Below, piece after piece: positions 37,662-63,177 of a DNA stretch of 64,000 nucleotides. A model generated the notes under the pieces. It did not search any database. It was not told where the DNA came from and saw nothing but the letters and a program-made list of their open reading frames with translations. Every line of letters starts with the position of its first letter. Positions within the stretch are counted from its first letter, which is position 1. The position numbers and the translations under genes are program-made. Source of the stretch: Asterionella formosa (lineage: Eukaryota); assembly GCA_002256025.1 (NCBI GenBank), contig NKIB01013053.1, forward strand, positions 1-64,000. The letters are read 5' to 3'.

Positions 37662-39215
37662 TTAAGGTTGGTTTTTGTGATGCGACAATATCTCCAGCTG
37701 TGCATCAAACTCTTCTTGGCTGGGAAAATCTTGCTCATAATACGCATTCTTCTTCCGACGGACATTTGCAAAGGGTTCCAATGTAGTTGTCAGCAATGTT
37801 TGAAGTGGTGGTTTACCAATACCAAAACGCCCTCGAAACACGTTATCCAAGGCCCCTTGAAGTTTGTATAAAAGGCCCAAAAGGCCTGTTGGATTTGGTC
37901 CAAAGGATAATTCATACAGTGCTTTTCCTTCCGGTACTTGTCGTTTGGAATAGGATAACAATCTCTCCTTCAGACTTATGCTGCTATTTGTTGCTTGCGT
38001 AGTCAAACAATCTGCCAACACCATGGCATCTACCAAGGCTGAATTAAGACCTTGACCAGAAACCCCACCTGTAGCATGGGCAGCATCTCCCACCAAAACG
38101 GCAGTTCCTTGATAATTGTGATAGGTATTGCATGTTATGGACGTCGCCGATCCTGTTGCTTGGTTCATCAGCTGTTTGGCCAATTCTAAAAAGTCAGCTC
38201 CAGCCAATGTAGGGAAGGACTCCTCAATTGCGAGAGCTGTTTCTTCGATGGACACTGGATTTAGAATTGGATCGTCCTTATAACGAGCAGCAAATAGGAT
38301 ACATGAGCCATTGGCTGTTGGTTCAACAAATGCTGTGGTGGATCCTGACTTTGGAAGGATGAGACACACCGATGTTGGGTCCACCTTGGGTGGCGCGCAT
38401 TCCAGTCGACACACTTTGTAATCACCAGGAAGGGGCGTTTTTGTGAAAGAAAAATCTGGCCATGCCGATGCAATGGAATCTCGTACTATTGAGTTGACGC
38501 CATCACAACCAACAATCAAATCAAATGGACCTGCTGTGGCTTGGGTCGTCTTCATGTCACTAGTACTGGACGTAGTTACAATGGTTCCCTTTTCCACATT
38601 GCAAGAAATTACCTTGGTATCAAATGCAACGGAAAACCTGTCGTCACGTTTGTACCTGGCTTCCAATTCATCCAACAGAGCCGCACATAAATCGCTTTGA
38701 TACATGAGTACAGACGGTTCCGTCGCTCCATCGCCATCCGTGCCGTCCCTCAATTGGATTGGCACTCCAGCAATGTACAGTGTAAATCGTTCACTTTCAT
38801 ACCCCCTTGCCTTGACAGCTTCCCACAAGGCATCGTCTACACTCTGAATGGAAGTTCGTCCTCGAGTCCCTACTCCAAGAGCGTAAGCTCGTCCTTCCAG
38901 AACGTTCCATCCTCGTGGATCAGCTCGACTTTCAACTATAGAAACTTTCGTCCCTTTTGCCAACAACAATCGATGAGCGAGCAGTAGTCCAGAAGGACCA
39001 CCCCCAACAATGGCAATGTGACTCTTTTCAAGTAGAAACGAAGACGATGAGTCCGACGAGGGAGCCATTAACAGAAAGGTGCCATCCGTTGCTGTTGAAC
39101 GGATCTGGAGATGCTGTTGATGCTGCGGTATCACAGTAAAGGCGCTTGAGAATAATAGTAAGCTACACTGATGCCAAAGCAGCAAAGAAGAGAGCAAGAG
39201 GGAAGTCATCATCAT
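37662..39215 (-). CDS. FAD-dependent monooxygenase (kynurenine 3-monooxygenase-like), plastid-type targeting
   Basis: Motifs IAIVGGGPSGL, DLIVGCDGVNSIVR, VLVGDAAHATGGVSGQGLNSALVD. Signal peptide followed by SSA-FTVIP. Confidence 0.88.
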   Translation of the reverse strand: MMMTSLLLSSLLLWHQCSLLLFSSAFTVIPQHQQHLQIRSTATDGTFLLMAPSSDSSSSFLLEKSHIAIVGGGPSGLLLAHRLLLAKGTKVSIVESRADPRGWNVLEGRAYALGVGTRGRTSIQSVDDALWEAVKARGYESERFTLYIAGVPIQLRDGTDGDGATEPSVLMYQSDLCAALLDELEARYKRDDRFSVAFDTKVISCNVEKGTIVTTSSTSDMKTTQATAGPFDLIVGCDGVNSIVRDSIASAWPDFSFTKTPLPGDYKVCRLECAPPKVDPTSVCLILPKSGSTTAFVEPTANGSCILFAARYKDDPILNPVSIEETALAIEESFPTLAGADFLELAKQLMNQATGSATSITCNTYHNYQGTAVLVGDAAHATGGVSGQGLNSALVDAMVLADCLTTQATNSSISLKERLLSYSKRQVPEGKALYELSFGPNPTGLLGLLYKLQGALDNVFRGRFGIGKPPLQTLLTTTLEPFANVRRKKNAYYEQDFPSQEEFDAQLEILSHHKNQP

Positions 39216-39839
39216 GGTCAAAAGAAACAGCTGTTGCAAAACAAGCGATTCGTTGGCTGTGGAATGTGTTTTTGTGAACAACTGTAATCAATTACCGGTA
39301 TATAGTCACTGACATAACTGATCACTCCATCAGTCAAGGAGTGGTATATTTAATACCAGCAGTTAATAATAAAATATGTATACCGGTACTGGTACCGTAA
39401 TCTATTCGGTAAAACTCATTTTGTATATGTATTAGATATCATTTTATTATATCCAAGACAGAGATGATGTCAACATCATGAGCCATGATTTGATCATAAT
39501 GGCTGATGTTCGCAATAAAATATTTCAAAATTGATCATCAGGAGGATGAGGTAAGATATTAACACGTCACATACAATAGATTCTACACACGAGTGTACCA
39601 CAGGACGGAATCCAGAATCCGTTTGTATGCCATACTTGATGTCGAAATAGGGCAACAAGCAGCAAATTGTAAAATACACAAATGCATGTCGTATGAAATC
39701 GTGCATGGATTTGTACGGTAGACCCGCTTGTACATTGTTATTGTACTGGTACCAGGTACCAGGTTCTCAATGCACCACGTGACCAGTAATAGCAGTACAA
39801 ACATCACGCTATTTCGAGGTGTTGGATCTCTCTCTCATC

Positions 39840-43590: not shown

Positions 43591-45204
43591 ATTCTATGAT
43601 TTGAGGAATCTTTAGAGAAGGTGTAGGCAAAGCACGTGACCCTGCCCCTGAAATCAATTCGAAGTAACAGCGAACATTTACCGTCTCGTCCGTTTCGTCT
43701 TTCTCCATACCGGTATTTAGACTAAATCGTCGCTTCGTGAGTACTTCGTTCGAAAATATTAGATCGGTTCATAGAATACTACAATAGCGAACAAGAAATG
43801 CTGAGTAGAAATAGGATAATGGTTTTTGAATTAGGTGCTAAGTAGGAAACGTGTCCCTTTCCCCCATCCGTGTTTAAATCCGGCTCCAATCTCTGGGTTC
43901 TGTGGCAGTCAAGTTGCGCTCTGCCGAGGGAGGGACTTAGGGTGGGTGGTTTGGACTGTAAATTGCATAAGGCTTGGCGATGCTTTAGACTGCTTCTCTG
44001 AAGCAATGCATAGTATTCAAAGAATTGTGCACTTCACCCCTGCACTAATTCACTGATGTTAACTTTGCATGGTTGCTATCTTCTTTCCTTGATTTAGCTG
44101 CTGATTCTTGTTGTTCGATTCAACACTAAAGCTAGAGCATAATAGTCGCATTGTTGCTATATTGATGTTTCAGCTTCGACTGGCGCCTCCTTCGATTTGC
44201 GTTGTGTGGTTTATTTAGTAGTCCAGTGCTTGCCTGGTATAACTCCATCGCGTCAATCCTTGTCCGTAACTGTTGTTCTTGTTGGTAATGGCAATGCTCA
44301 TGCAGCCTTGGAGAGTAGCAGAGAAATATTACAATGTAGCCCAGGTAAGCAAAGTCATTCAATAGTGAACAGGCACAGTACTATGGTGGAAATATGTATG
44401 ACCAATACATATGTATGTTGAACAACCCATGCATGGATTTATACCGGGCAGCCAACAGCTACCTGGCTGGTACCTGGTACCAGACAGCAGTAAAACCAAC
44501 AGGGTATGAAATTAATTATATAGCACTTATTAGTAGAATTAAACATTTGGTAAGTGTTTTTCTCTGTCCTGCAATGATTGGGTTTGTTGTGATTTGCAAT
44601 GCAGTTGTTTATATCGTGATCCATTTATCGTTTACTTAGAGAGGAAGGGAAACCCTCTTCGGTTGGTCTCCTTTGACCAGAAGAGGATGACAACATTGTT
44701 GAAATCTAAAAGAGATGATGATCAATCTTTTGAGGAGGAGATTGATTGATATGTAACAATATGCATACCTATTTTGGCATGAGAAAGCCATTTCGAATTT
44801 TAGCAAGCAAGTCTTGAAATATTCCGGGAAATTAAATTTAGTCTTTCATGAATAGTAGATATATTTTTATATATTGCACTGACTGTTATTTTTAACTGTA
44901 CAAAAATTTGGTCAACATAAACACAAATTTTGGGGTTATGAGTGCAACAATTTATGTTACAATACTCATGGTATAATATTTTTTTCTATCAGAGCGCGCC
45001 CACTAATAAAAAAACAAGAAACTGATATTTCTTCACCACAACCCTAAGCCCTAACCCTTCAGCATTGTTGCAATGTGGTTCTTGTGCGTTGGTCTCCGGG
45101 TTTCGGCGATCTTTTGTGGTCGTTTAAGGTCTTCTGCGGTCTTTTGCGAACCTTGCGTTCTTTTAAGGCCTTTTCGTTCGGTCTGATACTAACAGGGTAC
45201 CAGA

Positions 45205-45295
45205 GCCAAATTGCGCTAATCTTGCTGTAACTAAAGATTTAGCTTTTTAAATCTTAGATCGAAATGCTTTTTCTGCAAAATTACCGCGACTTGCC
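45205..45295. mobile_element. ~90-bp TIR mini-element copy with both inverted termini
   Basis: Left end GCCAAATTGCGCTAATCTTGCTG matches the reverse complement of the right end CTGCAAAATTACCGCGACTTGCC at 17/23 positions. Confidence 0.65.
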
Positions 45296-45841
45296 AGATA
45301 TACAATTTCTTGGGCTTTATTGGAAGGAATGTTCTTATTGCCCCTGGATGTTTAATGCTTCACCAGAGGTCAAATTTGCTTTCAAGAAATGAGAGTCGCG
45401 CGTACTTTTCAAGAAGTACGCGATCTTCTTAGAAGTACCAGGTAGTCGAACTGCCTTCGTAGAAGTATGCGCGACTAGAATTTCGAATGATATTTGGAAA
45501 ATTAATAGCGAGGTCTGTGCATGATACACATGAGAAATTTTCCAGATAACGAGGAAGCACGGAGTTTCTTTTACCTCCCAGTACCAGGAGTACCTCGGAC
45601 CTACCGTACAAAGGATCATGTTGAATCAACGTACCGGTAAGGGGGTTGTGGTCTTATTCTTTGCTTGCTTCCCTCTTCTCTTTTTAGCTGATTTAAGTAG
45701 ACGAGGAAATATTATCATATGTATGTATGGATGCAGCCGCCGATGTATATTACCTACCGGTGTATATGTAAAAAAAACACATTATTTCTGATTTACAAAA
45801 CTAAATCTGGTGGAAGCCTCTGGCCCTCGTCTGTGTCCACC

Positions 45842-48775
45842 ATGCCAGGCTCCTCAACTCATGATCACAGCTCCTTCAAGCCCAACAGCTTCGGAAGACT
45901 CGGCGCGCTGGGCACTCAATTCTCTTCGCACGACGTAGAGGTGAAGCGCCTTGGCGCATTTCTCAACCAGGGAGCCTTTGCAGGGTTAATCATTTGGATT
46001 ACACTTGTCTTCGTCGTCTTTTACGCATCTCCACCAGAATCCTATGAGTACCTTGAAGGCCACGAGCTCAAAGCAAACTTACTTCTCTTCGTATTGCTCT
46101 TTGTTACGAATGGCTCGCGATTGCTGCCGCTTTTTTTCAAGGAGCACTCCCAGTTCATGAACACTGGCGCCATGACTGGCTCTTTCACCATCCAGGGCAT
46201 TGCTCTCGCGTCTTGCGGGATCATGATATGTTTACCCACACCAGTTCTGATGGATACTATCACAAACCGACGGGTCCATCTGATGCGATGGGTGGAGTGG
46301 ATCCCCCTTGCCTTTCTCATGACCTTCCTCACGGAAGCCATTGACATGCCCAATCACGATCAAGCCGTAGAAGTGGCGTGGGGACATGCATGGGCCCTGG
46401 CCTTCAGTACCATGGCGGGGATTATATTTCCGTTCTGTACCACCCCGTGGCAGTGGATGGTGGTCTTTGTCATTTCTTGCATTCTTTTTTGTAGTTTGTA
46501 CGTCCGACTGTATCAACGAATGATGAGGTTTCGACGAACCCCCGTGGGAAATAGTGTCGATGAACAAGAATTGCACGACCGAGCCCGACTGAGTTTCAGG
46601 TTGCTTCAAGCATGCTCCATCATGTGGACGGGAATCATCGTAGCATTTGTTGCGTGCTGCGTTGCGGGAAAGTTTGCGCCAGAAGGGTCATGGTGGGCGA
46701 ATCCAGCCTTGCCACTAGTGGTTGAGTGTGCTTTTGAAATTGGATCCAAGATGTGGTATCTCTTGCTTATTGCGGATGTTCATGAAAGCATATTCGACGA
46801 AGGATTAAGGAGCATCCGTCGATTGAAAGAAATGCGGGATATGATGACCTGTGTGTGGGAATCATCGTCTGATGCAATTGCACTTTGTGTCAGGGGAAAG
46901 GAAACCATAAATGCCGTGGTGAGTCCAACTTTTTTGCGCCTGGGTACAGAAAATGCGGAAAGCGATTCCATGAAGTTGGCTCTTCTATTTGAAATTACTC
47001 TGCAACCCAATAGTCAAACCAAACCAGAACACAGAATCGCAACCATGGCTATGGCGAAGCTTGGCAAGAGCAAAAAACATAGCCCTAGCCCACCAAATTT
47101 GCTCTCAGAATTTTTTCACGATGACATGGACTCTTCAGATCAACGGAAAATTGCATCAATGGCGAAGCTGCTCGCCAAATCATGGCACTTTAATAGCCGA
47201 GAATCTCTTGTCATGCATGACTTGTACGGAGAAACACCGACAGGTGAACTACGAACGATTCGATGCGAAGCGAAGATTACCAAGTTAGCCAATGATGCAG
47301 CTGTGGTGGTGTTGCGCGACATTTCGGAAAGATTCCAACGATTTGAAACCGAGAAACAACTCGTTATCGCACTTACGGAGCGCAAGAAGGATTCTGAAGC
47401 GAATCGCTTTGCTCGTCACGAGGTCAAAAACAGTTTAATAGCCGCGCTTTGGATGGTCAATTCCATCAAGGATACCATGGAATCGCCGGATGGAATGGAA
47501 ACGAGCAGGGAAACAATGATCAACGTGAGGAGGGAAGCTGATCAGTCTGAAAGTCAAGCGCAGGGCAGTCTTACCCTGGGAAAGGCCGATATTCCTTTGA
47601 ATTTCCCGGGTTATATGCGAAAATTGGAAGAGAAGCTTCGCGAGGTCCTGGATACATTGGTGACGGAAGCCATAAGTCGTGAAGTCGTCAAAGAGATTTA
47701 CCAACCTCAAAATGAGGCAACCGACATTCGTAGCCTTTTGTCGAAAAATAACCACATGGCATCTTCTGCTGTTGATGATCGCTTTCCCATTTTCGAATCA
47801 AGGAATCCCTTTCCCAAAATCCTCATCGATCCTGATCTCGTATGTATTTTCCATCGTCACGCCGTTTCGAACGCAGTCAAATATGGCAAACAAGGTGGTG
47901 TGGTGCAAACATATCTCGCTTACGAAACTAAGAATAAGCAGTTGCTCATAAGTGTTACAAACCAGCCTGGTAAAAATCATGCAGTTTTGGTGGAAATGAA
48001 CGAGGATGAGACGGCGAAAATATTTTCCTCAGGAACCCGTCTCAACGTGAATAGTAGACCAGTAGACAAAGCAAGTGATGCCCTGTTTGCTATAAGTCCG
48101 GCAGGTGGCGGGGCTTGGATCATGCAAAAGTGTGCCGCGACCATGGGGGGACAGTGTACTATCAAATTTGAGAAAGACTCAACCATATTGTCTCTTTCCT
48201 GTCCTGCCGATGTTGCATCTGACGACTTGTATACATCTGGCGTTTTGGTAAGGGATTCAGCATCACATTTTGAAGTTCCCAAGAACACGTGGGGAATTGC
48301 TGTGGATGACTCTGGTATTCAGAGAAAATTTTTGGAGCGCTTCATGTCCTTGTCCGGAATCGAAAGTAGTAGACGAAGGATTCTGGGAGGATCAGATCAA
48401 GAGATTTTTGGATTCAATGAATATCTAGAGAAACTAATTGTTGAAAACCCTGATGACAAGTTTATGGTCATTGTCGACGAGAACCTAGTGGTTGAGGAGA
48501 AAAAGATTCAACAAACAATTTCCGGTTCCAAGTGTATTGAGACACTGCTGCATAATTTGAAGCCTGAAGATTCACTGCGTTTGCTCGCACTTGTGCGCAG
48601 TGAGGCGGATTCCAGCATAGATATCGCCATGTACAAGGCCCGCACTCACGGTTTTATTTCGAAATCACACATTCACAAAGATATGGTGCTACCGATCATT
48701 GAATGCTGGTGGAAACTGCGTTTTCCCACAGAGGCCGGGGTAGACCTTTCAAGGCAAAAATCGCTTCTTCAGTAA
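45842..48775 (+). CDS. Microbial-rhodopsin-like domain fused to PAS-like, hybrid histidine kinase and receiver domains
   Basis: About 8 TM helices, with helix C-like HLMRWVEWIPL and helix G-like FEIGSKMWY. PAS-like boundaries WESSSDAI...VVVLRDISER. H-box RFARHEVKN, N-box AVSNAVKYG, G2-like GGGAWIMQK. Receiver IAVDDS...VIVDENL...GFISK. Intronless; start taken as Met at 45842. Confidence 0.88.
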   Translation: MPGSSTHDHSSFKPNSFGRLGALGTQFSSHDVEVKRLGAFLNQGAFAGLIIWITLVFVVFYASPPESYEYLEGHELKANLLLFVLLFVTNGSRLLPLFFKEHSQFMNTGAMTGSFTIQGIALASCGIMICLPTPVLMDTITNRRVHLMRWVEWIPLAFLMTFLTEAIDMPNHDQAVEVAWGHAWALAFSTMAGIIFPFCTTPWQWMVVFVISCILFCSLYVRLYQRMMRFRRTPVGNSVDEQELHDRARLSFRLLQACSIMWTGIIVAFVACCVAGKFAPEGSWWANPALPLVVECAFEIGSKMWYLLLIADVHESIFDEGLRSIRRLKEMRDMMTCVWESSSDAIALCVRGKETINAVVSPTFLRLGTENAESDSMKLALLFEITLQPNSQTKPEHRIATMAMAKLGKSKKHSPSPPNLLSEFFHDDMDSSDQRKIASMAKLLAKSWHFNSRESLVMHDLYGETPTGELRTIRCEAKITKLANDAAVVVLRDISERFQRFETEKQLVIALTERKKDSEANRFARHEVKNSLIAALWMVNSIKDTMESPDGMETSRETMINVRREADQSESQAQGSLTLGKADIPLNFPGYMRKLEEKLREVLDTLVTEAISREVVKEIYQPQNEATDIRSLLSKNNHMASSAVDDRFPIFESRNPFPKILIDPDLVCIFHRHAVSNAVKYGKQGGVVQTYLAYETKNKQLLISVTNQPGKNHAVLVEMNEDETAKIFSSGTRLNVNSRPVDKASDALFAISPAGGGAWIMQKCAATMGGQCTIKFEKDSTILSLSCPADVASDDLYTSGVLVRDSASHFEVPKNTWGIAVDDSGIQRKFLERFMSLSGIESSRRRILGGSDQEIFGFNEYLEKLIVENPDDKFMVIVDENLVVEEKKIQQTISGSKCIETLLHNLKPEDSLRLLALVRSEADSSIDIAMYKARTHGFISKSHIHKDMVLPIIECWWKLRFPTEAGVDLSRQKSLLQ

Positions 48776-49279
48776 GAACTGTTAAAAATTTTATGTTTTC
48801 TTGTTCACAAAGAGTCGACAATATTCGGATGCAGATATCAAACAACCAGTTCTATGCGAGTGAGTTTGGCCGCACAACGAGGTATTTCGGATCAAAAAAT
48901 CAAGGACTGGAATCGACAATTTGTAAGAATGCCCTGTGAATCTAAACGAAAGCGTTATACCGAAAGTTGCTTAAAGACGAACCCAAATGAGCCTAATATC
49001 CAAATGTCAGCAAAGGTAGGCACAGGTTTTGTTACATTGCTTAATGTGAAAGCTCCGTGTGGGCGAGATATACAATTATGTAACAGGGAAACATGTACCT
49101 TTCCACAACGATTTAATTTGAACTACTATATATACAGAGACCATCATCTCAGAGTGATGAATTACGTACCATGCAACAAAATCTTTTTTCTTCAAGACTC
49201 TTCTCCGAATCGAGTTCTTCTAGCCGCGCCTTCATTTCGATGATTCTCTCCTTGTGCAAATAGTCATCAATCACGTCAC

Positions 49280-49930
49280 TGCTTCTTTCGGGTCTGAAAT
49301 CATGTCAAAGAACTGAGCAGAACCATAATCAGTGTACTCGATATACTTGTAGTCCATCCTGATCAACCCTCTTGCTGTTGGCCAGGAGGACTTCGGATCA
49401 AGTAAGTATTGAAATTTCGTAAGTAACTCTTTTCGCCAGTCAGTTGAGGTTGTTCGGAAAATTTAAGAAATGTCATGTCCACGTTTAAGGTGAAATTATC
49501 ATTTGGAAGCCCTCCTCCAGTGGAATCCACTTCCCTGCGAGACCGTGCAAGGCATGAACATATCCATTGTCAGTTGTGACCATGACCATTGTTTCGTTGA
49601 GAATTCCATGCCGTTCTAGTTCTTCGTAGACCTTGTCAGCAGCGCTGTCAACTTCAGCAATCAAACGATAGTACTTCTTGACCATTATCTGGTACTACTT
49701 GCATGGTTGGGTGTCAAAAGCGCAAATGATACTATCTTCGCCGACCTTCAAAGCCTCTGCAAAGGACCTGTTCTTGAGCATTTGCCAGCTCGAATCTCTT
49801 CCATTATTGGGATTCGGAATCGTATCGTTTATATAAAGCGCCATGGACTAGGGGATTGGGGCAGTAAATACTCCTTCATGGCATTCGTATCTGGGTTCTG
49901 GTCATAGTTTATAGCGCGAGGTGGATGTTG
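49280..49930 (-). pseudogene. Sulfatase-family pseudogene fragment
   Basis: YYRLIAEVD...LERHGILNETMVMVTTDNGY...HGLAGKW, with downstream RGLIRMDYKYIEY in a broken frame. Confidence 0.7.
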
Positions 49931-56183: not shown

Positions 56184-57929
56184 CTAGAAACATCCAGCTG
56201 TCGCAATACCTATTACACAACAGCTACATTGGACACTACAGGGAACTATAGCTTCGATGCTGGAACAATAGGAAGTGGGAGCAGTCCCAACAAAATTATT
56301 GCCTGACAAATCCAAATGATAACTGACTTGAAGGGACGGCAACGAACCAGTTAGTCTGTTTGATGATAAAGTCAAAACCTGAAGATTCAATAAATTGCCA
56401 AAAACTTCCGGTAGTGATCCCGTGAAACCATTGGCATCCAAACTGAGCACAGCAAGTTTGGTTAAAATTCCAATAGTTGTTTGAAGGGTCCCAGTAAGGT
56501 CATTGTAGCTCAAATCAATAGTTTTGAGGCTTTTGTCTAAGAGTCCAAGCTCAGATGGCAAAGTCCCAATGAAAGCATTTCCTCTCAAATCAATTTGAGT
56601 GAGTGCTGTTAGTAATCCCACAGATGAAGGTAGAGACCCAATTAAACCGGTATTTTTCATGGTGACTGACTTCAGATTTGAAAGGAGGCCTAATTCTTCG
56701 GAAAGGGTACCAGTAATGGAATTCGCAGAAAAGTCTAGTTCAACAAGCGATGTGAGACTGTATAAGCCTTCGGGAATGGTACTTGACAAGATGAGATTGT
56801 TGAGAATCAAAGACGTCAGCTTTGAAAGGCGGTGAATCCCTTCAGGAATGGACCCTTCGAAATTGTTCGAGGACAGATCGAGCACCTTCAACTTAGCCAA
56901 CTCCCACAACTCTACAGGAATGCGCCCGTACAACGAATTTACGGACAAGTTGAGGTACGTTAACGCAGGAAAAAAGCGAAAGATGGAGCTTGGCAGCTCT
57001 CCATTGAGCTTTTGACCCAACAAATTGATTGCTGAAACTTTTAACAAAGAATTGCATGTCACACCTTTCCATTCGCATTCACTTCCCGTTCCCAACCACT
57101 CAGTGGAGTACGTGGACGACCACCCTCCTAAGCTGAGATGCAGCAGTGCGAGCCCAAACCGCTGCTTAATTGTATCGTTGGTTGCGAAAATCCCCGAAAC
57201 ATCAGCCATATCTATGGCAGACCACCAAAGTGCAATGTTCTCCGGGCTGCATTCGTCATCTGGACCGCTATATTCTGAAAACAGCTGCGAGGCTCGAATG
57301 TCAGAGTAAATCGTCATGGTTGATTCAGACGAAATGGAAATTTTCGAAAAACAAGAGCATTGAAGGACTGGGGAAGGATCCGGTACGGGAAAAAAATCGC
57401 ATTCACCAGCTTGAGTGGCAGCACTTCCATGCGAGTTTCGATTCTCCTTGCTTGCAAAATAGGCCCCTAAGCCTCCTCCGATCATGGCAGCAACAACCAC
57501 TACAACGACAATCGCCACATGCCACCTTCGCTTGTTCGTCTCCTTCCTCAGAACGACATCAGCATCTATTGTTGGCACGATGCGAAGTGGTAGTGCTGCC
57601 GACGATCCGTGTGTCATTTCCTCTGGTGCGGGACCTGGACTAAAGTCCGTGTCCTCAGGCAATGAAGCTGTCGGATCCCAGGATCGTGTGCTGCTTCCCA
57701 ACAGTCCCGAAGTATCTTGCAGCATCCTTTGGGATCTGCGAATCAGTTGTACGGCATAGGCTCCAGGAGTGGTGGTGGTACCATCCGAAGACTCCATGTT
57801 TGCTTCTCTTCCTCGATTTATTGTCCTTGCAGATGTTGCAAGGAGCGCTTCTTCATTGGTAAGAGGACCTAGCGCGGCCTTTTCGCGGCGCTCCACAGTA
57901 ATAGACATTCCTCGGCTTGGACGACTCAT
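56184..57929 (-). CDS. Membrane-anchored LRR protein
   Basis: Cytoplasmic N-terminus with PGAYAV, TM helix, Cys cap, about 11 LRRs, C-terminal CSVQCSCC. Confidence 0.92.
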   Translation of the reverse strand: MSRPSRGMSITVERREKAALGPLTNEEALLATSARTINRGREANMESSDGTTTTPGAYAVQLIRRSQRMLQDTSGLLGSSTRSWDPTASLPEDTDFSPGPAPEEMTHGSSAALPLRIVPTIDADVVLRKETNKRRWHVAIVVVVVVAAMIGGGLGAYFASKENRNSHGSAATQAGECDFFPVPDPSPVLQCSCFSKISISSESTMTIYSDIRASQLFSEYSGPDDECSPENIALWWSAIDMADVSGIFATNDTIKQRFGLALLHLSLGGWSSTYSTEWLGTGSECEWKGVTCNSLLKVSAINLLGQKLNGELPSSIFRFFPALTYLNLSVNSLYGRIPVELWELAKLKVLDLSSNNFEGSIPEGIHRLSKLTSLILNNLILSSTIPEGLYSLTSLVELDFSANSITGTLSEELGLLSNLKSVTMKNTGLIGSLPSSVGLLTALTQIDLRGNAFIGTLPSELGLLDKSLKTIDLSYNDLTGTLQTTIGILTKLAVLSLDANGFTGSLPEVFGNLLNLQVLTLSSNRLTGSLPSLQVSYHLDLSGNNFVGTAPTSYCSSIEAIVPCSVQCSCCVIGIATAGCF

Positions 57930-58891
57930 GGTTGATACATGTTGTGTTCAAAAAGTCAATGGCAAGGAACAGAACATTAATTCTATGTGCGATGGGCCCC
58001 TTCGGAATATATGCACATGACCGCTGCTGTCAGAGAGAACTGCAAGTAATACTCTCTCTTTGCGGTCACAATATAATCATTAAGTACAACATTATGTACA
58101 AAATATCTTATTGCACCAGCCATTGCAGCATTGCAATAGCATCCTTTGACATCCTTCGCCCCTTCGGTTTTTACATACAATACAAACATCCCATATACTG
58201 TGGTGGATTCTTCAAATTGTTTACTTGGGACAGGTAAATTAATCACGTTTCTAAGCAATCCCAATTACGGTATCTGGTACAGGTAATTGGCGATGTACAT
58301 GGTACCTGATACCTGATTGCACCCCTAAATATCAATGCCTCCTTGGAGTTTTGTACATAGTCTTGAGTCATGTTATTTAGTATTACAGCACTGATGTATA
58401 GCCCATTCGTGACTAAATCCAAGACAAGGATATAGTTCACCACTTATACGCATATATAATATATGTACAACACACGAAGAAAAACTTTCTACCGGGACTG
58501 CAAGTTTGACGATGATCATTCATGAGTTCAATAAATGTTATCAAATCCTTATATATTTACATTTCTTATGAATATTCATACCGGTATATATGAATAGTTT
58601 TCCGGACAACACATAACGGAATCAAGTTTAGACATTTATTATTTCCGATGGTATTTTTTAACAGTACTTTAGATTGATGATATGACAATACATGTAACGG
58701 GGTTTTCTCTAATTTAACTTTATGGAATACTTTTAATTGTACACAGTAGCATCTCGACCCATACTTCGTCTCCAAAGGAGACATTTCGACGAGGAGAGTG
58801 ACTTCTTTCCGTTTTGTCGACAGGAACAGAGGATTGAATCTTACCTCAATATTTGTTGATCATCGCTCTATCGTATAGTCACTCGAGAATA

Positions 58892-60607
58892 ATGTCTGCA
58901 GGTAGCATCTCGTCAGGAAGGGGCAAAACGCGAAGGGATGATGCCGAAGAAACGGAGACTTGGGGCCAGCCCTTTCCGCTGGGAGGTTCCCTCGACCAAC
59001 TATCTAATCACACTCGGCAATTTGTCATGGACTCAGAAAGCCCTCCTTATAAGCCCCGACCGTCAATGACAAAGTTGGATAGTATGGGCTCATCCATGAT
59101 CTCCATCGCTCATTTTGATGACTCCCTCTCCGATCTTCGCGACAATCTCGAGAGATTTTCACAGGAAGGGACCAAGGCGCGAATGACCAACAAACCTTCC
59201 AAACAAACGAGGACTGCTTCTGTGCTTAGTAGTAGTCACAAAAAGATTCTGATTGCTTATTATATTTGGCTATTCACAGCTACAGCTGTGTTTACAGGTC
59301 TTGCCGTGAGCATGCACATGCAATCCAAAAACGCAGTCTACACCACCATTGGACAGTGCAACAATGTGTCTGGGAACCCTTACTTGCAATGTATCTGTGG
59401 CCAGAGTCAAGTCACTGGTGACGTCTCGGAAATTGTGGATCTTCGTTTCATGGAATTGAATATTCACTTTGGACTTGAAAGGGGTGCGATTTATGACACA
59501 AACTCTTGTCAGAACCCATACAATGTAGCCCTTTGGTGGCTGGCTATGAAGACTGAAAGTCTAGATGCCAAGAGACTGATGACTCTGTTTTCATTGGCGC
59601 TTTTGTACCTTAATTTAGATGGAACTAATTGGAACCATCAGACTGATTGGATGTACCATGAAGTGAACGAGTGTGATTGGGGAGGAGTCACTTGTTCCTA
59701 TGAGTTGCTCGCTGACCCGTCCACTACAAACGTTGATGCTGGTGTTGTGGTACAATTGGTTTTGGACAATATGAAGTTATCCGGGAGTTTGCCCAGCGAG
59801 ATTGGCTTGTTGACCGACTTGGAAACGCTGAGCTTGGGCAACAACGATTTCTGCGGCAAATTGCCAAAAGAAATTTTGGGTCTGACCAATCTTCAAGAGT
59901 TGTCATTGCAAGGAAACGCGTTTGAAGGCACAATACCCGATCCAACTATTTTCTCACATTTAAAAGTTTTGGTACTTGGGAACAACAAGTTCTCTGGAGT
60001 TCTTCCAGAGAATAGTCTCTATAAATGGACAGGACTACAGGAGCTCATTCTTGAGAGTAACTCTTTCTCGGGAAGTTTACCAAGCTCACTGGCAACGTTG
60101 ACACAGCTATCCAACCTTAATTTGGCCAAAAATACCTTCAAGGGGGCGATGCCGGACATTTTTGCACTGACAGATCTAAAATGGCTCATTGTGAATGATA
60201 ACGAACTGACCGGAACATTGAATAATTTCTTCCCTAATAGGTTGGAAACTCTTGATATGTCCAACAACATGTTCAACGGTACCCTACCAAACAACTATGG
60301 TAGCCTATCCAAACTCAGCATTTGCAACCTCGGTCACAACAAGAACTTAAGGGGAAAACTTCCGAGCGAATACGGTTCATTGTACAATCTCAATGTACTC
60401 GGACTCTCCTCGTGTCAACTGACAGGAATCATTCCATCGGAACTTGGAAACTTGGAAACGATATCAATATTGGATTTGGGAAATAACATGTTTAAGGGCA
60501 ATATGCCAATGGAGGTGTGTAAATTGAAAGTGACTGGGTTCTTACAAGAGCTGTTGGTGAATTGTGACGTGAATTGCACCTGTTGTCCCAACGACTGCGA
60601 TGCTTAA
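58892..60607 (+). CDS. Membrane-anchored LRR protein
   Basis: TM helix, NPYLQCIC, ALWWLA, ECDWGGVTC cap, LRRs, C-terminal CDVNCTCC. Confidence 0.92.
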   Translation: MSAGSISSGRGKTRRDDAEETETWGQPFPLGGSLDQLSNHTRQFVMDSESPPYKPRPSMTKLDSMGSSMISIAHFDDSLSDLRDNLERFSQEGTKARMTNKPSKQTRTASVLSSSHKKILIAYYIWLFTATAVFTGLAVSMHMQSKNAVYTTIGQCNNVSGNPYLQCICGQSQVTGDVSEIVDLRFMELNIHFGLERGAIYDTNSCQNPYNVALWWLAMKTESLDAKRLMTLFSLALLYLNLDGTNWNHQTDWMYHEVNECDWGGVTCSYELLADPSTTNVDAGVVVQLVLDNMKLSGSLPSEIGLLTDLETLSLGNNDFCGKLPKEILGLTNLQELSLQGNAFEGTIPDPTIFSHLKVLVLGNNKFSGVLPENSLYKWTGLQELILESNSFSGSLPSSLATLTQLSNLNLAKNTFKGAMPDIFALTDLKWLIVNDNELTGTLNNFFPNRLETLDMSNNMFNGTLPNNYGSLSKLSICNLGHNKNLRGKLPSEYGSLYNLNVLGLSSCQLTGIIPSELGNLETISILDLGNNMFKGNMPMEVCKLKVTGFLQELLVNCDVNCTCCPNDCDA

Positions 60608-61274: not shown

Positions 61275-63177
61275 TTACGCAGCACACCATCCACCACTAG
61301 GAGGTCGGCAAGTTGTTTTACCACTGCTCACGTCAGCGGGTGCCACACAGCAGGTATAACCACCACTACAGGTGTCGACATTTCTTCTACAGTTATTCCA
61401 GTTGGGCACAGTCGAAGATGAAGCGCAATATGTAGCACTTTGGTTTGGTCGACAAGTGGCTTTGCCACTGGAAACATCAGCAGGTGCGACACAGCAAACC
61501 CAATTATTAGCGCAAGTGCTCGATCCACGTGTGCAGGTACTCCAGTTGGGAATTAGGGGCTGTGATTGCCCCACACTAATGCAGCTGCTACCAGCAAGGT
61601 AATTGCCAATGGCACTTCTTGACTGTGGGCTAAAGCCGTTGGCCCCACTGTTGACTGTCGGCTCCATGATCCATTCGACATTAGAAGTAAATGGATCATG
61701 GTTATAACCTGTTGTAGATAGTAGGCAGCAAAGGTTAAGTGCATGATGCAAGGTATTGCAGGTATTTGGGATGTGATTCGACAACGTACCAGCATTGTGT
61801 CCCAGTTCGTGGGCAAAGGAAACGGTTTGCGACTGTAGGTCTCGAGATGCAAAGTTATGTATAGCGTAAGAATTTGAATTACAAAGGTTTCTTGTCCATG
61901 CACATCCAACTATACTGGACTCGAACGAAGTCCCAGTGAACAAGTGAGCTGTGTCTCGATTCACTGAGCTTCTATTGGTATTAAAGTAATTTGTGAACCA
62001 ACGGAGCAGTCCATCTCCTGAACAGCCAGATTGTCTGCTTGCGGTACCGGCTCTGTATGGGTCTGTGCTGGGATCGCAAAAGCCCTCCATGTGAGTAATC
62101 TGGATCTTGGTGCAAAGATTACTCTGATAGATAGAGGAGGCACGAGCAACGATCTGCTGAGCAATGGCATTTGCATTGTTAGCGCCGCCAGCTTCCCTGC
62201 AGAATGAAGAATCGTACGCAATCGCAAGATCAATAACTCTGAGTGAACCACATCCTGACTGTAAGTTTCTTTCGTCCATTACTGACGAATCAGCTCCTCT
62301 CGCCATCAAGGTTCGCGACTCGTTTCCATTGCTACCATCTTTGCTCGGATCTGCATGCGCCAAAACGAATTGTTTCATTGCCTTTTTATCAAGAGCTTCA
62401 GGAAGCATAATAGCAAGTACTCCGTCTGAAATTTCATGCATTTGCATATTTGATCCATCCGTGTAGGTGATATCGACCGTTTCCACGTTTCCTCCAGGTC
62501 CTTTTGTTACCAGCATAGTACTATCAGATTCAACTTTCATGAAAGTGGCCGCTGTAGGACGTGCCTTCGCCTTTCCCTCAAACATATAAGTGGCATCATC
62601 AGAAAACACGTCCATAGGGATGAGACCTTCCAGTGAGTGTACGGCACCATTAACCTTAATTGTGTTACGCTTCGAAATCTTTTGCATGGGCAAGTCTACC
62701 CCCTTTTTCATGTGGTGACGTGACATGAACTTATCCATAATTTCAGTGGAAGGTACCTCGAACAAGGAATCATCATCATCTTGCTTCTGTTTCTTTGTCT
62801 TCTTCAGGACTCTGCTCACTCCTGCGCCCTTCATTCCCATCCCATTTGACCCTAAGACAGACGAAGGAGTTGCATTGATGCTGTGAGGCTCCTCTTCTTG
62901 AGACACACTCCTATGTCCGCGCAGTTCTCCCTGTACGGATGAGTTCCGAAAATTAACAAGTATTCAAAAAGAGAAGTTGTTAGAAACGTTAAAACAGAAT
63001 GTCGGGACATGTGTGTGTTCCTCAGTGTGTGTGTCATAAAATAATGAGAGGCCATTGGATCAAACGGAGGGGTGGTGATACTATGAAGATACCTACTTTT
63101 AGTCCCTCAATGTTAGTGATTGCCATGAGAGCCAATAAGACCGATAGAAGGATAGATTTCTTGTTGAGTTTAGTCAT
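61275..63177 (-). CDS. Secreted metzincin (M12B reprolysin-like) metalloprotease with two C-terminal Cys-rich repeats (exons 63177-63097, 62930-61790, 61708-61275)
   Basis: Exon 1 encodes a signal peptide (MTKLNKKSILLSVLLALMAITNIEG). Motifs IDLAIAYDSSFC, RDTAHLFTG, spliced HELGHNAGYNH, Met-turn WIMEP, FSPQS. Confidence 0.9.

Follow-up and report, generated by a model that had tools for sequence, protein, structure and literature searches.

Green algae possess histidine kinase rhodopsins (HKRs), in which a rhodopsin, a histidine kinase, and a response-regulator domain are joined in one polypeptide, as described in the available portions of two reports (PMC12558739 and PMC6798134). In excerpts from recent reviews and surveys, the light sensors named for diatoms are cryptochromes, aureochromes, phytochromes, and, in some species, proton-pumping rhodopsins. 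The accessible part of an open-ocean survey gives rhodopsin-histidine kinase transcripts as undetected (PMC8017926), and a census of eukaryotic histidine kinases based on HisKA and HATPase_c lists, in its accessible part, PAS/GAF, CHASE, and ethylene-receptor types for diatoms (PMC6324907). Further related literature, likewise available in excerpts, includes PMC13436692, PMC10627834, and PMC6944256 in addition to the two HKR reports. Here, we analyzed a gene of Asterionella formosa that lies in a stretch of 64,000 nucleotides (the window; assembly GCA_002256025.1, contig NKIB01013053.1, positions 1 to 64,000 of the forward strand). An original prediction, made by a model from the letters of the window and a list of its open reading frames (ORFs), had read this gene at 45842..48775 as a candidate rhodopsin, histidine kinase, and receiver in a single polypeptide. 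We computed domain folds, rhodopsin homology, conservation of key residues, and presence in RNA libraries for this gene. Our results make it likely that the encoded protein is an enzyme rhodopsin with a histidine kinase as its output, a retinal-binding sensory rhodopsin with eight transmembrane (TM) helices that would drive a phosphorelay between H526 and D879. Judged from sequence and structural models, the gene product is probably a light sensor. Full-text literature searches, with subscription journals outside their scope and priority therefore not assured, yielded no description of a diatom rhodopsin-histidine kinase, in line with the original prediction, which knew of no functional characterization of such a protein in diatoms.

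The membrane domain is predicted to adopt a rhodopsin fold with an extra helix

We modeled the membrane part of the protein (residues 1 to 335) with AlphaFold2 from an alignment of 76 sequences. The model (predicted local distance difference test, pLDDT, 91.8; predicted template modeling score, pTM, 0.87) contains eight long helices within residues 27 to 317, in agreement with the approximately eight hydrophobic helices initially counted by eye, and a beta hairpin between core helices 2 and 3. An extra N-terminal TM helix, TM0 (residues 27 to 62; 45920..46027, + strand), precedes a seven-helix rhodopsin core (residues 74 to 317; 46061..46792, +), in which the beta hairpin occupies residues 133 to 146. 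The last membrane helix is followed by a helical linker (residues 320 to 334; 46799..46843, +).

All matches shown by a Foldseek search of the PDB were microbial rhodopsins, with the rhodopsin phosphodiesterase Rh-PDE at the top (E 3e-5). VIA aligned residues 36 to 335 of the model to the TM domain and linker of Rh-PDE (7d7q_B; Z 21.6, root-mean-square deviation [rmsd] 3.6, 270 aligned residues), thereby reaching from TM0 to the end of the modeled linker, and also aligned the model to bacteriorhodopsin (1brr_C; Z 19.2, rmsd 2.8, 223/232 residues) and bestrhodopsin (Z 18.9). Alignments at Z 19 to 21.6 comprised 213 to 270 residues. In a comparison with 48,161 representative chains that was independent of Foldseek, rhodopsins formed the top 36 rows (Z 21.3 to 14.7), of which 34 carry rhodopsin titles and the other 2 have titles that give no information. 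TMEM87A came next at Z 13.9, followed by G protein-coupled receptors at 10.9 or less. Only Rh-PDE and bestrhodopsin aligned from the extra N-terminal helix onward, with 7-TM rhodopsins aligning from about residue 70. The original prediction had staked its photosensory reading on the presence of a rhodopsin fold, and the model shows this fold.

Identity to solved rhodopsins was 9 to 16%, and sequence homology to rhodopsins was visible only when family profiles were compared with the solved proteins. Of two such profiles searched against the PDB, A2 matched bestrhodopsin at E 8.2e-6 and Rh-PDE at E 1.7e-3, and A3 matched bestrhodopsin at E 7.8e-9, Rh-PDE at E 5e-6, and cruxrhodopsin-3 at E 0.087. 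A single-sequence phmmer search of the PDB returned nothing useful (Rh-PDE only at E 9.6), and a search of the ESM Atlas gave no usable match. Judged by the profile matches, the membrane domain is homologous to rhodopsins, and its nearest solved relatives, by sequence and fold, are Rh-PDE and bestrhodopsin. On the modeled structure, the membrane part combines the fold of type-1 rhodopsins with the extra N-terminal helix of enzyme rhodopsins, supporting the assignment that was first made from the sequence.

Candidate retinal-binding residues are conserved in the register of bacteriorhodopsin

The original by-eye alignment had placed RWVEW on bacteriorhodopsin R82-Y-A-D85-W86 and EIGSK on D212-x3-K216. 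We compared the family with two sets of haloarchaeal rhodopsins (19 and 30 proteins) and used the profile-profile results, which had weak E values, for residue register only. Both alignments placed R149, E152, and W153 on R-Y-A-D-W, W262 on the helix-F tryptophan, and E299-x3-K303 on D-x-x-A-K, indicating that the by-eye alignment is correct. We take the aligned positions to be R82, D85, W86, W182, D212, and K216 in bacteriorhodopsin numbering.

The motif R149-W-V-E152-W153 in core helix 3 (46286..46300, +) would supply the arginine, a putative counter-ion glutamate, and a pocket tryptophan, with W262 in core helix 6 (46625..46627, +) aligned to bacteriorhodopsin W182. E299-I-G-S-K303 in the last helix (46736..46750, +) would supply a second acidic residue and the candidate Schiff-base lysine. 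Among the 76 aligned sequences, W262 is invariant, R149 and K303 are each conserved in 75, and position 299 is acidic (E/D) in 75. W150 is kept in 72, W153 in 71, and E152 in 69, and position 302 is S or A in 70. The position of bacteriorhodopsin W189 is F, Y, or W in 69/76. In HMMER alignments, the family motif RW[AVC]EW falls on RYMEW in bestrhodopsin and on RYAEW in Rh-PDE. The sole relative among the 76 with another residue at the K303 column is P0036, which has Thr there and may represent a misalignment or a retinal-free member.

The cytoplasmic part is modeled as a hybrid histidine kinase

The cytoplasmic part (residues 336 to 977), modeled from a 57-sequence alignment with a pLDDT of 83.3, has four modules. 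A sheet of the PAS-like type comes first, then a long hairpin of helices that contains a disordered loop, and finally an alpha/beta and a (beta-alpha)5 domain. In a Foldseek search, this model matched WalK, the LOV kinase YF1, HK853, and ShkA with E values from 1e-14 to 1e-9, and VIA gave Z 17.4 for ShkA and Z 17.1 for HK853 (2c2a; 229/240 residues). The PAS-like domain comprises residues 345 to 493 (46874..47320, +; model residues 10 to 158) and is covered by whole-length matches to the PAS/LOV histidine kinases 4gcz, 4i5s, 9a5d, and 9eut that begin at model residue 1. A LOV flavin-binding motif was not seen in the PAS segment when it was inspected by eye.

The hairpin that follows corresponds to the DHp domain of HK853 (residues 495 to 616; 47324..47689, +). 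It includes a low-confidence loop at residues 554 to 585 and carries the putative phospho-accepting H526 (47417-47419) of the H box, conserved in 56 of the 57 sequences and followed by E527 in all 57. The alpha/beta domain matches ATP-binding CA domains of the Bergerat fold (residues 625 to 788; 47714..48205, +), with a VIA alignment to the ThkA CA domain (Z 16.8, rmsd 2.3, 139/146 residues) and an alignment to YycG. Within it, the N-box N677 (47870-47872, +) is Asn in 57/57, and the F-box F728 and the G2-box glycines G755 and G757 (+) are each kept in 56/57. The G1 site of this domain is N707 (47960-47962, +), which HMMER aligned to the Asp of YycG.

The C-terminal (beta-alpha)5 domain (residues 812 to 962; 48275..48727, +) superimposed on CheY (3chy; Z 15.1, rmsd 2.0, 127/128 residues), supporting its identity as a receiver. 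Its acidic pair D822 (55/57) and D823 (57/57), putative phospho-acceptor D879 (48476-48478; 56/57), S920 (57/57), and K941 (57/57) are conserved. In the model, the cytoplasmic part is thus a PAS-DHp-CA-receiver hybrid kinase with no cyclase. The PAS-like segment, H-box histidine, N box, receiver with its acidic pair, Asp, and Lys, and lack of a cyclase output that had been read from the sequence were all recovered.

RNA-library contigs are consistent with an intronless gene

The open frame extends over 45719..48775 (+), and translation from the ATG at 45842 yields a coding sequence of 977 residues plus the stop codon (45842..48775, +). Each key residue was found at the codon first assigned to it: K303 is AAG at 46748-46750 in FEIGSK, H526 is at 47417-47419 within RFARHEVKN, and D879 is at 48476-48478 within MVIVDENL. 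The codons of R149 and E152 in RWVEW begin at 46286 and 46295, respectively.

The RNA libraries that we examined are lake-water metatranscriptomes and one algal polyA library. Contigs from four runs belonging to two studies span 45796-49541 without joints, outlining a transcript-like unit (45796..49541, taken as +) with a 5' leader of about 46 nucleotides, the whole coding sequence, and about 770 nucleotides past the stop, although such contigs give neither strand nor true transcript ends. In three runs, the contigs start at 45795, 45796, and 45802, or 40 to 47 bases upstream of the ATG at 45842, which is the sole ATG within 45796-45850; RNA-contig depth is nearly zero over 45000-45769. Because the contigs are jointless and begin just upstream of a single ATG, these data support an intronless gene that starts at 45842, as originally proposed. 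Versions of 1003 and 1018 residues, which use upstream starts in 45719-45841, are probably over-extended. Both the mechanically called ORF (from 45719) and the gene call of the relative P0002 use ATGs that precede the starts of the RNA contigs. Past the stop, the stretch 48776-49541 covered by the contigs may represent a long 3' untranslated region or overlap with a neighboring transcript.

The protein belongs to a family whose named members are diatom proteins

A search with the membrane domain recovered 27 relatives of about 1,100 residues each, and an exhaustive search recovered 761 cluster representatives with E values of 1e-3 or below, of which 551 passed a cut-off of 1e-10 and 289 a cut-off of 1e-30. 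Among longer proteins, a TM-only profile gave 56 matches, all with the same kinase architecture and none with a cyclase, phosphodiesterase, or channel. Among proteins near the length of the domain, the same profile gave 10 matches, which were same-family fragments only, with no stand-alone rhodopsin among the proteins that passed the word filter. Relatives of about 600 residues were considered as a shorter architecture and rejected as truncated gene models.

Named members of the family are diatoms, both pennate and centric, and include an "expressed unknown protein" of Seminavis robusta and a protein of the centric diatom Cyclostephanos tholiformis; one MMETSP transcript was also found. The original prediction had suspected that homologues exist as automatic annotations, and their source names are generic ("signal transduction histidine kinase," "hypothetical protein," and "expressed unknown protein"). 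The protein P0002, from another assembly, is 99% identical to the window protein, and other relatives are 88 to 95% identical. Two paralogues, P0008 and P0023, may share one contig, as the longest contig given for each has a length of 42,228 bases. The "uncharacterized" and "noncanonical HKR" clusters described in the available part of PMC13739731 might include the diatom family.

Most paralogues contain about 100 further C-terminal residues that are helical and have no counterpart in the window protein or in P0002. This segment (e.g., in P0003, P0008, and P0009) has an invariant W, L-K-G-D, T, and W, and a His two residues before L-K-G-D in seven of eight aligned paralogues (Gln in P0013). 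Histidine phosphotransfer (HPt) domains are four-helix bundles with a His in an H-x-x-K-G motif. The paralogue segment resembles this motif, but an HPt identity is confirmed neither by Pfam, in which Hpt matched only two of the eight (E 0.062), nor by a PDB search with the segment, which gave no match. Beyond the stop codon of the window gene, the other reading frames showed no exon that could supply a missing HPt segment.

We are evenly balanced on a broader proposal, that these proteins constitute a large unrecognized diatom family of sensory enzyme rhodopsins, composed of an 8-TM rhodopsin, PAS, kinase, receiver, and usually the C-terminal segment. In this proposal, the family would be transcribed in natural freshwater communities, related to Rh-PDE and bestrhodopsin, missed by standard screens, and possibly fused independently of HKRs.

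A proposed light-driven phosphorelay and alternative explanations

We propose a mechanism for a light-sensing phosphorelay, of which we infer the binding of retinal, the control by light, the direction of that control, and the partner that acts downstream. The rhodopsin domain, of type 1 and with eight helices, would have its two termini on the cytoplasmic side. Retinal would be attached to K303 through a Schiff base, E152 and E299 would form a counter-ion pair, and R149 would lie beside them. Light would isomerize retinal and cause the last helix to move, and this movement may pass through the linker helix and the PAS-like domain to the DHp helices of a dimeric kinase. The rate of H526 phosphorylation would thereby be altered, with phosphoryl transfer to D879 of the fused receiver and from there possibly onward to a separate phosphotransfer protein or response regulator.

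Several observations weigh against this mechanism. Pfam matched HATPase_c alone in the window protein (E 0.024, 15.5 bits versus a cut-off of 26.4), with Bac_rhodopsin (PF01036), HisKA, and Response_reg unmatched and Bac_rhodopsin absent even at E ≤ 10. The same three families were unmatched in the 36 relatives scanned (21 + 15; E ≤ 0.01), of which 13 of the first 21 matched HATPase_c (best E 3.3e-5) and the further 15 behaved alike. Of the Pfam models suggested with the original prediction, HATPase_c alone matched the window protein, below its cut-off. With hhalign, the haloarchaeal bacteriorhodopsins were matched weakly (E 0.31 for an alignment of 170 columns and E 0.044 for one of 197), and a comparison of the receiver with 24 haloarchaeal receivers aligned only the 19 columns of the D-D segment (E 0.012), so the receiver identity rests on the CheY fold match and not on hhalign. 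Across the 76 relatives, the positions of bacteriorhodopsin Y185 and P186 are Leu/Ile and Val/Ala, respectively. At the G1 box, 56 of 57 sequences have Asn (N707) where canonical kinases have Asp, and none has Asp. RNA-library contigs alone are no proof of transcription or strand.

The points that concern the membrane domain would fit a sensor kinase that retains the rhodopsin fold but has lost retinal binding and instead senses a lipid, ion, pH, voltage, or another small ligand through the same phosphorelay. The missing Bac_rhodopsin match, the low identity to solved rhodopsins, the aliphatic residues at the Y185 and P186 positions, and the Thr at the lysine column of P0036 (1/76) all favor such a sensor, and a common fold does not establish function. 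However, loss of retinal in opsin relatives usually goes together with loss of the lysine, and here the lysine is kept in 75/76 together with the acidic residues, the arginine, and two pocket tryptophans in the register of bacteriorhodopsin. Furthermore, the nearest solved relatives, Rh-PDE and bestrhodopsin, are retinal proteins, and we consider a retinal-free sensor unlikely. We find it very unlikely that the protein is an ion-transporting rhodopsin, a pump or channel, with a mere regulatory tail. The fold is common to pumps and channels (Z 15 to 19), but the best matches are 8-TM enzyme and regulatory rhodopsins, and about 640 of the 977 residues form the conserved kinase-receiver module.

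The G1 substitution bears on whether a photoactive rhodopsin is coupled to a canonical ATP-driven autokinase or to a module that acts mainly as a phosphatase or phosphotransfer scaffold for the receiver or that uses another nucleotide. In canonical GHKL ATPases, the G1-box Asp binds adenine, and an Asp-to-Asn change at this site abolishes ATP binding in Hsp90 and GyrB. Since Asn occupies this site across the family, ATP-dependent autophosphorylation is not assured, and the sub-threshold HATPase_c match in the window protein, with matches in 13/21 relatives, is in line with a noncanonical module. Conversely, the His of the H box, the Asn of the N box, the Phe of the F box, and the glycines of G2 are conserved in 56 or 57 of 57 sequences, which would be unexpected if the ATP site were dead. 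The CA domain retains a close fold match to ThkA, and there are active kinase subfamilies without a canonical G1 box. From these sequence features, kinase chemistry of the CA/DHp module appears likely but not assured, and we regard a noncanonical module as improbable. A pseudogene or chance open frame, which is the most remote of the explanations that we weighed, would account for the lack of the C-terminal segment of most paralogues in the window copy and for off-consensus sites such as H673, where 52/57 sequences have Asn. Yet the frame is open for 977 codons with all key residues intact, a 99% identical protein occurs in another assembly alongside relatives of 88 to 95% identity, and RNA-library contigs from two studies cover the gene. 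Considering these points together, we favor a retinal-binding sensory rhodopsin fused to a phosphorelay kinase.

Diatoms are major primary producers. If the proposed function is correct, the protein would represent a new photoreceptor class for diatoms, beyond cryptochrome, aureochrome, and phytochrome inputs, and would provide a retinal-based light input to a diatom phosphorelay. Invisibility to Pfam would explain how the family escaped Pfam-based screens, implying that domain-based censuses of rhodopsins and eukaryotic histidine kinases can miss whole families. The protein is directly testable and may offer a new scaffold for optogenetics.

Other genes in the window

Neighboring ORFs in the window encode a copia-type reverse transcriptase, a SufBD-type protein, a CLC channel, a triose-phosphate translocator, and leucine-rich-repeat proteins and are ordinary nuclear eukaryotic genes. 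The reverse transcriptase (26-1747, +; RVT_2, E 1.5e-34) has a frame that is open to the window start, and GC content is 54% over the first 2 kb of the window versus about 43% elsewhere. A FAD-dependent monooxygenase (37665-39281, −; FAD_binding_3, E 1.3e-21) lies 6.5 kb upstream of the rhodopsin-kinase gene and would be linked to carotenoids if it were of the zeaxanthin-epoxidase type. The leucine-rich-repeat proteins at 56187-57929 (−) and 58853-60604 (+) are divergently oriented, and an M12B reprolysin-like metalloprotease (61278-62906, −) adjoins these two genes.

Relationship to described rhodopsins and sensor kinases

Rh-PDE of Salpingoeca rosetta (7cj3/7d7q) is the best structural match to the window protein, including its extra N-terminal and linker helices. 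The first helix of Rh-PDE (chain residue 45 onward) aligns with the helix at residues 27 to 62 of the window protein from model residue 36, and a cytoplasmic enzyme is fused after the last helix in both proteins. A helix-3 motif R-[YW]-A-E-W with Glu at the position of bacteriorhodopsin D85 is common to Rh-PDE and the diatom family. In contrast, the output of Rh-PDE is a phosphodiesterase rather than a PAS-histidine kinase-receiver, identity is 12 to 16%, and its source is a choanoflagellate rather than a diatom. Bestrhodopsin (7pl9), an algal protein with a rhodopsin-rhodopsin-bestrophin arrangement, is the best sequence match in the PDB through both of its rhodopsin domains, and its structural alignment extends over 277 residues from model residue 28. 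The corresponding motif in bestrhodopsin is RYMEW. Unlike the window protein, in which one rhodopsin is joined to a phosphorelay, bestrhodopsin uses rhodopsins in tandem to gate a bestrophin channel and lacks a kinase.

The cytoplasmic part resembles PAS/LOV sensor and hybrid kinases (YF1 4gcz, WalK, HK853, and ShkA) over the PAS, DHp, and CA domains (Z 16 to 17). It differs from these kinases in having a membrane rhodopsin domain as its input and Asn in place of the G1 Asp.

The domain order of rhodopsin, DHp/CA kinase, and receiver in one chain is shared with green-algal HKRs (Chlamydomonas HKR1/2c-Cyclop and Ostreococcus Ot-HKR), whose sequences were absent among the PDB matches of the family profiles and which we compared by description. 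Relative to these HKRs, the window protein has no cyclase and a PAS-like domain between the rhodopsin and DHp, and its family is distinguished by Asn at the G1 site, rhodopsin, HisKA, and receiver domains that are invisible to Pfam, and diatom members. The diatom family may be a sister group of the green-algal HKRs, a member of the "noncanonical HKR" cluster as described in the accessible part of PMC13739731, or the product of an independent fusion of a rhodopsin to a histidine kinase.

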